This document shows positions 8,952 through 60,919 of a stretch of DNA of 64,000 nt, piece after piece. The translations under genes were made by a program, and so were the position numbers. The notes under the pieces were generated by a model, which saw only the letters and a list, made by a program, of their open reading frames with translations, did not search any database and was not told the DNA's origin. Location of the stretch: assembly GCF_024223415.1 (NCBI RefSeq), contig NZ_CP100500.1. One strand, 5' to 3'. Each line of letters starts with the position of its first letter. The stretch's first letter is position 1. Source of the DNA: Escherichia coli (lineage in GTDB: Bacteria > Pseudomonadota > Gammaproteobacteria > Enterobacterales > Enterobacteriaceae).

Positions 8952-8992
8952 TGTTTCACCGTTATATAACGGTATCATTCAGTTTTTAAAAA

Positions 8993-9016
8993 TGGCGACA
9001 GGTTAACCTGTCGCCA
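8993..9016. terminator. GC-rich hairpin (TGGCGACAGG-TTAA-CCTGTCGCCA) after the MFS gene
   Basis: Perfect 10-bp inverted repeat; T-run lies on the minus-strand side. Confidence 0.4.
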
Positions 9017-9585
9017 TCCGGTCAGATGCTCACCAGACCGCGCCCCCCATCAGTCTCCATATCCTCCCCCTTGCCCTGCCGGATGATAGCGCCACGCGAC
9101 ATCACCAGGTAGTGGTCCGCCGTAATGTTCCGGTGAAATCGTCCTGACACGTTTCCGGGCTCGTTATCAGCGGTTTTTGCGAATGATCGCCGCCCTGCGA
9201 TGGTTGATTTATTTTATTGCGCCCCGGCGTCTGCCTTGCCAGGTACCGGAGGCGGGCTCTGAAGTACTGAGTAGGGTGAGCGCGTCAGGCCACGAAGTAC
9301 TGACACGGGAGTTTGTGGCAGGCAGTGAAGTCCTGACCAGGGTAAGGGAGGGGCTGACGTGCATGCCCTGACTGTCAGCCAGGGCGCGTGGTGACTGACT
9401 TTCTCAATAACCCGCTGTCAGGCGCTCAACGCCCGACAGCAGGCCATGGCCCGGTGTGCAAAGACCTGACGGCAGGCCTTGTGTCACCCGGATAAGGTAA
9501 ATCCCTCAAGAGGCAGCAACTCAGCCAGTCGGTCCTCAGGCCACTCCGGCAGGCGCGTCAGTACGTCCGTCAGCCAGGCATGTTG

Positions 9586-11300: not shown

Positions 11301-11395
11301 ACCCGTCATGATTTTCTTTTTCACGGCCTCTCCGTCATCTTCAGTTCACACCTTTGTATAAAAAACAGGGCGTGATACACATCACGCCCTGCGCT

Positions 11396-38543: not shown

Positions 38544-38692
38544 CATTTTATCTGCCTGTACGGCAGTGAACATGGTGGGCGGGTGGAGTATGTTACCAGT
38601 GAATTTCTAAGCTGCCTGTACGGCAGTGAACGTTTGCTGCAACCGCTAGCCAAGACGGTAGGTTTTTCTAAGCTGCCTGTACGGCAGTGAAC
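38544..38692 (-). CRISPR. Orphan type I-F CRISPR mini-array (3 repeats, 2 spacers, no cas genes in window)
   Basis: Two exact copies of TTTCTAAGCTGCCTGTACGGCAGTGAAC (38604-38631, 38665-38692) plus a degenerate copy ending at 38571; spacers of 32-33 bp. Confidence 0.8.
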
Positions 38693-52107: not shown

Positions 52108-52323
52108 CGTTGGCATCAGCGACATCTGTCACATTCCTGTCAATAGCGTTAACTGCTTCAAATTTTTGATTCATACCTGCCCCCTGTCCCCTGTCAAATG
52201 CTTGACGGCTCGCCCTAATTCTCTAAATTGTATTTCTAGAGTTGGCGAGGTTTTGAACAGCCCCCTCTCTGACCCCGGTTTATTCCATCTTACTTGTATA
52301 AGATTTGCGAAGGATGTCGAAGC

Positions 52324-52548
52324 ATGGAAAAGGGTACTGTTAAGTGGTTCAACAATGCCAAAGGGTTTGGTTTCATCTGCCCTGAAGGCGGCGGCGAAGA
52401 TATTTTCGCTCATTATTCCACCATTCAGATGGATGGTTACAGAACGCTAAAAGCTGGACAATCCGTTCAGTTTGATGTCCACCAGGGGCCAAAAGGCAAT
52501 CACGCCAGTGTTATTGTGCCCGTCGAAGTAGAAGCGGCAGTCGCATAG
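52324..52548 (+). CDS. cspD: Cold-shock-domain protein CspD
   Basis: MEKGTVKWFNNAKGFGFICPEGGGEDIFAHYSTIQMDGYRTLKAGQSVQFDVHQGPKGNHASVIVP matches CspD. Confidence 0.9.
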   Translation: MEKGTVKWFNNAKGFGFICPEGGGEDIFAHYSTIQMDGYRTLKAGQSVQFDVHQGPKGNHASVIVPVEVEAAVA

Positions 52549-52620
52549 CTCTTCTGTCTCATTGTGTACATCCTAAAGGCAAAATGCCAGCCCGATCGGC
52601 TGGCATTTTTATCTCAAAAA

Positions 52621-58866: not shown

Positions 58867-59562
58867 ATGTTCAGAAAATTAGCAGCTGAATGTTTTGGTA
58901 CTTTCTGGCTTGTTTTTGGTGGCTGTGGTAGTGCTGTACTGGCCGCAGGCTTCCCGGAATTAGGCATTGGTTTTGCCGGCGTGGCGCTGGCATTCGGTTT
59001 GACCGTTCTGACGATGGCCTTTGCTGTTGGTCATATTTCTGGTGGTCATTTTAACCCGGCGGTCACTATTGGTTTATGGGCTGGCGGACGTTTTCCGGCA
59101 AAAGAAGTCGTTGGCTACGTAATTGCCCAGGTTGTCGGCGGTATTGTTGCAGCGGCGCTGCTGTATTTAATTGCCAGTGGTAAAACGGGTTTTGACGCGG
59201 CAGCCAGCGGTTTTGCTTCTAACGGTTATGGCGAGCATTCACCAGGCGGTTATTCCATGCTTTCCGCGCTGGTAGTTGAACTGGTATTGAGTGCAGGTTT
59301 CCTGTTGGTGATCCACGGCGCAACCGACAAATTCGCTCCGGCAGGTTTTGCGCCGATCGCTATTGGTCTGGCCTTAACCCTGATTCACTTAATCAGTATT
59401 CCGGTGACTAACACTTCTGTTAACCCGGCGCGCAGCACCGCGGTTGCCATCTTCCAGGGCGGCTGGGCATTAGAACAACTGTGGTTCTTCTGGGTGGTGC
59501 CAATTGTCGGCGGCATTATCGGTGGTCTGATTTACCGGACCCTGCTGGAAAAACGTAATTAA
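58867..59562 (+). CDS. aqpZ: Aquaporin Z
   Basis: Two NPA motifs ([14 protein letters not shown]); matches AqpZ. Confidence 0.95.
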
Positions 59563-60019
59563 TTAGCATTGGCATTTTATCTGCCCTGGTTGTTTTATCT
59601 TCGACGTTACAAACCGCACGGGTGTTGGTGGCGTCAAAATCGCTGAAGCGTTCCCCGAAGGCCGGGGCAGCCCACATGGATGTGGGCTGAGGGCGCGTCT
59701 TACAGGACGTTACCTCGCGCCCGACCCGGTAGCAGAAGGGGATAAGCTGAAGGTACCGCGCAGCGGCGATTTTTTTCGCCAGAGCCCGGGGGGGCAGGGG
59801 GCGGCGGCGACTGGCCGCCCCCTGCGCGCTCCCTGCGCCAGTGGCTTTATATGGCATTGCACATGAAAGGAGCGCAACAATGCTAAACACTCATATAGAA
59901 TTAAAAATCCCCCTCTGATGCATAACATTTCCTTTTAATTGCAACTTTACTCGTCCTTCCGCTTTCAGTAGTGTGACATCGCGCATTTCGACTTCTTTCT
60001 TTGCAAGGGCTGGGTTTTC

Positions 60020-60919
60020 ATGTTTTCTGGGCTGTTAATCATTCTGGTTCCCCTGATTGTGGGTTACCTCATTCCGCTTCGCCAAAAAGCTGCATTAAGA
60101 GTTATTAATCAGCTATTAAGCTGGATGGTTTACCTTATTCTCTTTTTTATGGGTATCAGTCTGGCGTTTCTCGATAACCTCGCCAGTAACCTGTTGGCGA
60201 TTCTGCATTATTCTGCCGTCAGTATTACCGTTATTTTACTGTGTAATATTGCCGCCCTTATGTGGCTGGAGCGCGGTCTGCCGTGGCGCAACCACCATCA
60301 GCAAGAAAAACTCCCGTCGCGTATTGCGATGGCGCTTGAGTCGCTAAAACTGTGCGGCGTAGTAGTGATTGGTTTTGCCATTGGCCTGAGTGGACTGGCT
60401 TTCTTACAACACGCGACCGAAGCCAGTGAATACACCTTAATTCTGCTACTTTTCCTCGTCGGTATTCAGTTGCGCAATAATGGCATGACCTTAAAGCAGA
60501 TTGTCCTTAATCGCCGGGGAATGATTGTCGCCGTGGTGGTGGTTGCCAGTTCATTAATTGGTGGTTTAATTAACGCCTTTATTCTTGATCTACCCATCAA
60601 TACCGCGCTGGCAATGGCCTCTGGTTTCGGCTGGTATTCTCTTTCCGGTATTTTATTGACCGAATCTTTTGGTCCGGTAATCGGGAGCGCGGCGTTTTTT
60701 AATGATCTGGCCCGTGAGCTGATTGCAATTATGTTGATCCCTGGGCTGATTCGCCGCAGCCGCTCTACCGCACTGGGCTTATGCGGTGCGACGTCGATGG
60801 ATTTCACCCTGCCCGTTCTTCAACGTACTGGCGGGCTGGATATGGTCCCGGCGGCAATTGTTCACGGTTTTATTCTTAGCCTGTTAGTGCCGATCCTCAT
60901 GGCCTTTTTCTCTGCGTAA
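60020..60919 (+). CDS. lysO: Lysine exporter LysO (YbjE)
   Basis: 299-aa polytopic membrane protein in the conserved aqpZ-ybjE-hcp position. Confidence 0.85.
   Translation: MFSGLLIILVPLIVGYLIPLRQKAALRVINQLLSWMVYLILFFMGISLAFLDNLASNLLAILHYSAVSITVILLCNIAALMWLERGLPWRNHHQQEKLPSRIAMALESLKLCGVVVIGFAIGLSGLAFLQHATEASEYTLILLLFLVGIQLRNNGMTLKQIVLNRRGMIVAVVVVASSLIGGLINAFILDLPINTALAMASGFGWYSLSGILLTESFGPVIGSAAFFNDLARELIAIMLIPGLIRRSRSTALGLCGATSMDFTLPVLQRTGGLDMVPAAIVHGFILSLLVPILMAFFSA

Follow-up and report, generated by a model that had tools for sequence, protein, structure and literature searches.

GC-rich palindromes between aqpZ and lysO of Escherichia coli as internal stems of a reversed copy of the TRIP1a/RRS-lysO repeat

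What are the two GC-rich palindromes that lie between the genes aqpZ and lysO (ybjE) in a 64,000-nucleotide stretch of Escherichia coli DNA (contig NZ_CP100500.1 of assembly GCF_024223415.1; hereafter, the window)? In the initial annotation, made from the letters alone, they were taken for repetitive extragenic palindromic (REP)-type elements or strong terminators. According to the comparisons presented here, both are internal stems of an already described repeat, TRIP1a, also called Replication Risk Sequence (RRS) RRS-lysO, and the reverse-orientation allele of TRIP1a is likewise already known. Unrecognised until now were three features, namely, that the G-quadruplex (G4) motif of the repeat represents one half of a hairpin kept by covariation, that two neighbouring hairpins look like a protein-binding module of the TwoAYGGAY/CsrA type, and that both orientations occur in natural populations at both loci, aqpZ–lysO and yohP–dusC.

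Both palindromes are present. The first, CAGCCCACAT-GG-ATGTGGGCTG, was found exactly where it had been placed (59668–59689, + strand), and as a hairpin it has 9 bp and a 4-nt loop (DNA folding energy −10.4 kcal/mol). The second had been placed at about 59793–59822; its existence and its N8 spacer were confirmed, whereas its actual position is 59794–59825, about 2 nt off and one pair longer, with the form GCAGGGGGCGGC-N8-GCCGCCCCCTGC, perfect 12-nt arms and a DNA folding energy of −20.8 kcal/mol. Perfect inverted repeats whose arms reach 10 nt or more and whose loop does not exceed 10 nt gave 18 matches in the window, found in about nine places, against a mean of 0.9 in 40 dinucleotide-preserving shuffles of the window; for arms of at least 12 nt, three places were found against a shuffle mean of 0.13. 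Because these counts exceed the shuffle means, the occurrence of a pair of such palindromes inside 130 bp is not due to chance.

The repeat unit, that is, the core common to paralogous copies as delimited by BLAST, occupies 59607–59880 (about 274 bp), with its G-rich 'sense' strand on the + strand. It is 90.2% identical over 275 nt to TRIP1a of the MG1655 aqpZ–lysO region, where the match runs against the direction of the genes; identity was 90.4% to TRIP1c, 92.7% to a yohP–dusC copy and 93.6% to an efeU–putP copy, the paralogous copies being located between the genes of these two pairs. The intergenic region matched 5,425 of 5,426 complete E. coli genomes, at a median of about 3–4 places per genome. 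The TRIP1 repeat (Rudd 1999) was treated by Li et al. (2024; PMC10888264), in whose description TRIP1a lies between aqpZ and ybjE, TRIP1b after putP with a 125-bp internal deletion and TRIP1c after yohI/dusC, TRIP1d and TRIP1e are present in some strains, and TRIP1a–e occupy five fixed loci with a mutual identity of roughly 84–94% over about 146–273 bp. The window copy agrees with this description in its level of identity and in its position between aqpZ and ybjE/lysO. Pham et al. (2024; PMC11194060) equated the 'Replication Risk Sequences' near lysO and dusC with TRIP1 repeats, RRS-lysO being one of two GC-rich repeats of about 222–274 bp, each about 650 kb from dif, on opposite sides. The window copy shares with TRIP1/RRS the locus, the predicted 'double-Y' fold and the G4 motif apart from one substitution, and differs from the K-12 copy used for all RRS experiments in its opposite orientation, in its other junction sequences and in having no separate aqpZ terminator. 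In the RefSeq record of MG1655, no feature is annotated in any of the three K-12 TRIP1 intergenic regions; this absence is uninformative, because a REP-like sequence in one of the same three loci is likewise unlisted.

The palindromes had been assumed to lie between convergent or terminating transcripts. The convergence does not hold, since aqpZ (58867–59562), upstream of the repeat, and lysO (60020–60919), downstream of it, are both on the + strand, with the two palindromes in the intergenic space separating them. Whereas the K-12-type repeat runs counter to aqpZ and lysO, the window repeat has the same direction as both genes. The GC skew of the window + strand was negative in seven of eight 8-kb bins, which makes the G-rich strand of the window repeat the template of the leading strand, in contrast to K-12, where the G4 strand is the lagging-strand template; the window thus carries a natural inverted allele. 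About 100 bp upstream of the lysO start codon are common to the window and K-12, and the remainder back to the aqpZ stop codon is divergent. It should be noted that simple inversion in situ was rejected as the origin of the reversed allele, the flanks beyond the core of about 274 bp being only weakly similar in element orientation, and that recombination between TRIP1a and TRIP1c was rejected because it cannot reverse a copy in place between the genes on either side of it.

The frequencies of the alleles were determined with whole-intergenic queries at a coverage of at least 80% in the 5,426 complete E. coli genomes; the core alone makes up less than 75% of any query, and a match at this coverage therefore needs the flanks too. 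At aqpZ–lysO, the K-12/MG1655 type was found in 4,028 genomes and the reversed (window) type in 895 (16%), while at yohP–dusC the corresponding numbers were 3,308 and 2,000 (37%). Li et al. (PMC10888264) counted forward and reverse copies and gave reverse TRIP1a in 1,255 of 4,703 genomes; in the available part of Pham et al. (PMC11194060), no discussion of natural inversions was found. In E. coli E69 (CP089930.1), the aqpZ–lysO and yohP–dusC copies are both reversed relative to K-12, which makes this strain a natural counterpart of the engineered double-inverted strain. No empty aqpZ–lysO site was found among 58 sampled intact loci, all of which contained some form of the repeat (inserts of 220–395 bp); two further sampled rows matched lysO only.

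Within the repeat, the structure predicted from the Rfam alignment and by RNAalifold begins with domain 1 (59623–59787, +), a multi-branched fold whose two adjacent apical hairpins are enclosed by an outer stem and by further stems interrupted by GA/GA internal loops. Apical hairpin 1 is palindrome 1, with the loop region CAUGGAUG and with CACATGGATGTG at 59673–59684. Apical hairpin 2 (59691–59722, +; GGGCGCG...CGCGCCC) has the loop region ACAGGACG at 59702–59709, which is ACAGGGAUG in most other copies. The 3' half of the closing helix, GCGATTTT (59766–59776, +), pairs with AAAATCGC at 59636–59643 and runs into a T7 tract (59770–59776) that is specific to the window copy, other copies, including the E69 copy in the same orientation, having TTTTGTT. 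Domain 1 is followed by the G-quadruplex-forming RRS motif (59788–59807, +), which is GGGGGGGCAGGGGGCGGCGG here and GGGGGTGCAGGGGGCGGCGG in K-12, with one T-to-G difference; it has a single match in the window and none in the shuffles. The 5' arm of palindrome 2, an all-G/C hairpin of 12 bp on the + strand, overlaps this published motif. In hairpin 3 (59826–59875, +), GCGCTCC (59826–59832) pairs with GGAGCGC (59869–59875). The RNA folding energy was −143 kcal/mol (z = −5.05).

Selection on this structure was assessed in an alignment of 14 copies from Escherichia, including E. albertii, and Pseudocitrobacter, with the consensus obtained by RNAalifold and pair counts. In the consensus fold, 96.7% of the cells were paired, and changes on both sides of a pair (compensatory changes) were found at 15 of 79 pairs, compared with one to four in slid controls; the count of 15 was reached in none of 500 shuffles. 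When four Klebsiella copies and one Citrobacter copy were added, 27 of 71 pairs were compensatory. Such changes were found in helices 1, 2, 4 and 5 of domain 1. The stem of palindrome 1, constant in the 14 copies, changed from A-U to G-C in the four Klebsiella copies and in Citrobacter, and in the latter also from C-G to G-C and from C-G to A-U, with an invariant loop; in apical hairpin 2, UUACA.GGAYGUUA was replaced in Klebsiella by UUGCA.GGACGCUG, with pairing and the GGA retained. Palindrome 2 changed twice from C-G to A-U in the yohP–dusC copy of Ecol_867, its basal G-C became A-U in the four Klebsiella copies, and several compensatory changes occurred in Citrobacter, while in hairpin 3 (helix 13) C-G was replaced by U-A and by A-U in TRIP1d-type copies. 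Conservation, which the initial annotation had made a test of its proposal, was thus observed for both stems across genera. The C-rich arm co-evolves with the G-run, and therefore it is the 12-bp hairpin, and not a G4 alone, that appears to be maintained; this argues for a hairpin containing the G4 motif that is kept by selection. The covariation indicates that the structure under selection includes both this G4-bearing hairpin and the two GGA-loop hairpins. G·U cells numbered 46 and A·C cells 6, which points to the G-rich strand as the folding strand; this bias fits RNA as well as single-stranded template DNA, and the folding energies of single-stranded DNA (ssDNA) did not separate the strands (−73.2 and −71.1 kcal/mol).

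The added elements of Klebsiella (four loci) and Citrobacter (one locus) are TRIP1-like, with 74–84% identity, and occupy intergenic positions beside genes of chromosomal type, between convergent genes in four of the five cases and after an ISKpn1 transposase gene in one. In a 5.4-Mb record of K. pneumoniae, matches were found at 13 places, far above E. coli. The 'plasmid' matches that were inspected lay either on records of very large size or amid genes of a chromosomal type.

The best-supported explanation of these palindromes, and in our estimation a probable one, is the DNA-level mechanism published for K-12. According to Pham et al. (PMC11194060), the RRS sense strand has the predicted G-quadruplex GGGGGTGCAGGGGGCGGCGG and stops Pol I, II and IV in vitro, with folding and polymerase block at the G-run when the G-rich strand is single-stranded; ssDNA gaps of about 2 kb, bound by RecA and SSB, arise only when the G strand is the lagging-strand template. 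Deletion of both RRS was possible only with amplification of insH7-8 or with inverted or relocated copies, and the gap peak was absent from engineered inverted copies (PMC11194060). By analogy with the engineered inversions of the RRS, the window copy would cause polymerases to pause but would leave no lagging-strand gaps; it may still provide an orientation-independent function, and it would be transcribed as the 3' untranslated region (UTR) of aqpZ. The G4 of Neisseria pilE, cited by Pham et al. as the other bacterial G4 that triggers gaps, is similar: it too is a strand-specific, G-rich structure by which replication is disturbed and a gap or nick is left behind. The TRIP1 G-run differs from it in forming half of a conserved 12-bp hairpin, in containing just two runs of at least three G and in having no link to antigenic variation.

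Several points weigh against the published mechanism as an explanation of the window copy. The polymerase block and the triggering of gaps are known from K-12 alone, and for the window allele the gap behaviour would follow from the engineered K-12 inversions. The orientation dimorphism and the double-reversed strain E69 are awkward for a function in which the G strand must serve as the lagging-strand template, and many genomes retain internal deletions in which the two-hairpin core is lost. A DNA-only model would leave unexplained the invariance of the CAUGGAUG and CA(N)GGAYG loops beside co-varying stems. The G4 assignment in the main text of Pham et al. (PMC11194060) consists of a predictor plus polymerase stops, and the words 'hairpin', 'potassium' and 'circular dichroism' are absent from that main text, which leaves room for a block by the hairpin.

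The deletions recur between short direct repeats, TTCCCCGAAGGCCGGGG (59651–59667) and TTCGCCAGAGCCCGGGG (59775–59791), so that a span of about 125–127 bp within 59651–59791 (+), with the two-hairpin core, is taken out. Deletion alleles are represented by MS20653 at aqpZ–lysO and by K-12 TRIP1b at putP–efeU. The MS20653 allele (locus L009, 1501–1820) is in the window orientation and has a 127-bp deletion between CCGGGG direct repeats, with loss of both GGA hairpins; an additional 11-nt deletion destroys the 3' arm of palindrome 2. The same intergenic length of 320 bp was found in several strains of the genome sample.

The invariant loops are accounted for if the G-rich strand, transcribed here in the aqpZ 3' UTR, acts as RNA. 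Domain 1 would then be an RNA of the TwoAYGGAY class whose two GGA loops form a bipartite site for a CsrA dimer, serving as a CsrA decoy or as a cis-acting handle; such a role, compatible with one at the DNA level, is unlikely in our estimation. The CsrA consensus ruACArGGAugu, in which GGA occupies a hairpin loop (PMC5694010), is matched by the loops CAUGGAUG and ACAGGACG, the latter being ACAGGGAUG in most copies. The window copy contains the CsrA-type sequences CACAUGGAUGUG and UUACAGGACGU, with GGA starts 27 nt apart, a spacing that suits a dimer. Loop 1 (AUGGAU) fits AYGGAY, whereas loop 2, ACAGGAC here and ACAGGGAU in most copies, corresponds to A..GGAY with one or two extra bases. These loops are invariant in Escherichia, Klebsiella, Citrobacter and an approximately 60%-identical Pseudocitrobacter element, while the stems co-vary, and the excess of G·U over A·C cells favours the GGA strand, although G·T wobble would suit an ssDNA fold too. 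The complementation of viability in K-12, which according to Pham et al. (PMC11194060) is independent of orientation and position, is what would be expected of a diffusible product. Yet no sigma-70-like promoter was found by a scan of 59400–60100, and in the K-12 TRIP1a and TRIP1b settings the G strand is antisense to the upstream gene. In CsrA CLIP-seq data for the K-12 allele under one condition, TRIP1 sequence was in no peak, and lysO and dusC were scored as non-targets, a weak negative result, since reads from near-identical repeats were possibly discarded.

The comparison with TwoAYGGAY, a motif described by Weinberg (2010) for which a role as a CsrA-binding small RNA was proposed earlier (Gardner and Eldai 2015), leads to a similarly divided result. 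The Rfam model (RF01731) aligned over its full length with 59623–59787 at 32.1 bits (E = 0.0067 for a 1-kb search), which is below the gathering score of 43, and the window copy was absent at E ≤ 0.1 from the search of the whole window; other TRIP1 copies scored 29.6–30.9 bits. A diverged sister element next to a TRIP1 copy passed the gathering score with 49.2 bits. Conversely, a covariance model of TRIP1 domain 1 scored 35.1 bits on a certified TwoAYGGAY of Lachnospiraceae and 41 bits on copies from Shewanella, and in Alteromonadaceae, Woeseia and Colwellia the two-hairpin pattern also picked up series of GGA hairpins that look like CsrB-type arrays. These reciprocal matches were, however, obtained on loci picked with a pattern taken from the core, and a match to the core only already gives about 31 bits, so that the outer stems add little; the similarity between TRIP1 and TwoAYGGAY would thus essentially come down to two hairpins plus a generic enclosing stem. 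With TwoAYGGAY, the window copy shares two adjacent terminal hairpins of the A-Y-G-G-A-Y type joined by AG, the enclosing stems with GA/GA internal loops, the outer stem, the multi-copy occurrence and the full-length alignment to the model. It differs in its score, in a second loop that is not strict AYGGAY, in its richness in GC, in 110 nt more sequence (the G-rich hairpin and hairpin 3), unseen downstream of one Lachnospiraceae copy, and in being known here from sequence, as a predicted RNA. With CsrB, CsrC, RsmY and RsmZ, it shares GGA in hairpin loops at a spacing suited to a CsrA dimer, and the CAGGACG of the window copy equals the CsrB repeat, CAGGA(U/C/A)G. Its two sites compare with about 9–22 in those RNAs, and it has neither a known promoter nor a CLIP-seq signal.

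In a broader form, the RRS/TRIP1 repeats may also, or primarily, be genes for an RNA of the TwoAYGGAY class (or for an ssDNA fold) whose invariant GGA loops are read by a protein such as CsrA; complementation would then reflect the product, polymerases would be blocked by the 12-bp hairpin instead of by a G4, and either orientation would be tolerated, as gaps would not be the selected function. This proposal is doubtful. The covariation of the G4 hairpin, the TwoAYGGAY/CsrA-like hairpins and the occurrence of either orientation at both loci together give an orientation-independent function in RNA or protein recognition some, though low, probability.

Related hairpins were observed outside E. 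coli. In Pseudocitrobacter faecalis (locus L076), the sister element (2177–2340, +; about 60% identity) lies head-to-head with a TRIP1 copy (1868–2135, −) and has the same architecture, two GGA-loop hairpins and then a G-rich GC hairpin, with the 49.2-bit match to TwoAYGGAY in its core. Oppositely oriented pairs a few hundred bases apart were also seen at locus L075 and at three loci of Pseudoxanthomonas. At 26 loci of Pseudoxanthomonas spp., a long stem that co-varies between copies encloses the hairpins GUGGCACAUGGAUGUGCCAC and GACAGGAYGUC; more than 25 copies of this element are present in the genome of P. kaohsiungensis, no Rfam family matched it at the gathering score, and it may be regarded as a candidate RsmA/CsrA-binding RNA or mobile repeat. 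At eight further loci, the GGA-strand pattern matched Bacillaceae-1 RNAs of Rfam on the strand opposite to the model, in agreement with a published suggestion that the reverse complement of Bacillaceae-1 has sites of the CsrA type; the motif of Sediminibacillus directly adjoins 16S rRNA genes at their 5' end. Seven loci from Woeseia, Alteromonadaceae, Colwellia and other marine gammaproteobacteria contain tandem arrays of ACAUGGAUGU / ACAGGAUGU hairpins beside terminator-like stem-loops, which look like sponge RNAs of the CsrB/Rsm type; the two arrays compared with Rfam (L018 and L019) had no match at the gathering score.

An improbable explanation is that TRIP1 is a selfish or decaying repeat resembling a miniature inverted-repeat transposable element, without host function, whose structure is kept only for its own spread. 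It would suit the copy number (from 1 to 10 places in an E. coli genome, 13 in a K. pneumoniae chromosome), the intergenic position of the examined copies, mostly between convergent genes, the presence of both orientations with differing junctions at the same locus, and the recurrent internal deletions. However, neither terminal inverted repeats nor target duplications were found, the sole boundary inverted repeat being 9 nt long (59563–59571/59878–59886), of which about 0.4 would be expected by chance according to our own estimate; no associated transposase and no match in phages were found either. Some form of the repeat is present in all 58 sampled genomes with an intact aqpZ–lysO locus, and the double deletion in K-12 gives phenotypes (PMC11194060).

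The second role foreseen for the palindromes, that of strong terminators, can be put as a reading in which the stable hairpins terminate aqpZ transcription in the window allele or form a barrier to 3'-to-5' exonucleases, and it has very little probability. Between the aqpZ stop codon and the repeat, a terminator scan of 59400–60100 revealed no hairpin followed by a T-run in the window allele, whereas in the K-12 allele GGCCTGGCGTAATGTCAGGCCTTTTTTT is found 3' of aqpZ, a sequence absent from the window allele; aqpZ transcription must therefore enter the repeat. There, a small CCGC/GCGG hairpin and the closing helix lead into the T7 tract, and the stability of the RNA fold would also suit such a function. 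Nevertheless, the same scan gave no sites on either strand, and neither palindrome is followed by a T-run, the next bases being AGGGCG after palindrome 1 and GCGCTCC after palindrome 2. The T7 tract is peculiar to the window copy, the element occurs in both orientations and, in K-12, beyond a separate terminator, and the Term-seq supplementary files examined contain no 3' end for these loci, transcript ends being the other test named in the initial annotation.

That the palindromes belong to a REP element or a bacterial interspersed mosaic element (BIME) is ruled out for practical purposes, since the REP consensus had no match in the window with up to three mismatches, the REP-derived Rfam model naRNA4, which detects REPs in other loci, found nothing here at E ≤ 10, and a unit of about 274 bp in about three copies per genome contrasts with about 35 bp and hundreds of copies for REP. 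What stands of this part of the earlier description is that the element is repeated, extragenic and palindrome-rich. It resembles REP/BIME in being extragenic, GC-rich, palindromic and repeated, with stable stem-loops possible in 3' UTRs, and differs in being unrelated in sequence, about 8 times longer and about 100 times less numerous.

A coding role was likewise rejected, as the minus-strand open reading frames (ORFs) at 59516–59890 and 59710–59928 and a 12-codon plus-strand ORF are not conserved, and single-base indels between copies and the compensatory changes in stems also speak against it. At the 3' edge of the repeat (59867–59918, +), a Shine–Dalgarno-like AAGGAG (59867–59872), carried by the 3' arm of hairpin 3, lies 7 nt ahead of an ATG at 59880, which opens the 12-codon ORF (59880–59918; MLNTHIELKIPL). 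The ATG is also present in several other copies, with an ORF that varies in length and sequence (nine codons in K-12 TRIP1a and three in K-12 TRIP1c), and the Shine–Dalgarno-like bases lie paired within hairpin 3.

Elsewhere in the window, a small CRISPR array was found at 38544–38692 (−), with three CRISPR-DR4 direct repeats of 28 nt spaced by about 60 nt (50.1, 50.1 and 29.7 bits). A match to the cspA thermoregulator model at 52219–52612 (+), below threshold (41.6 bits against a gathering score of 78), is probably the 5' UTR and gene of a csp-family member; a perfect palindrome with 12-nt arms lies at 52581. The perfect palindrome at 8992–9017, with arms of 12–13 nt, gave a match of 20.9 bits to the CsrC model at its terminator end and is probably an ordinary bidirectional terminator. 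Further perfect palindromes with 10-nt arms are located at 11366, 26514, 31575, 36962 and 45630.

The finding of the palindromes is in itself ordinary, a catalogued repeat having been found again. The RRS are, on the other hand, a pair of conditionally essential elements that flank the Ter macrodomain, and the published model of their action depends on orientation, whereas the window represents a common natural allele (895 of 5,426 genomes) in the 'non-gap-forming' orientation. The covariation of the G4 hairpin, the strand bias and the invariant CsrA-like loops would bear on the choice between gap/G4 models and models of RNA or protein recognition for these elements.

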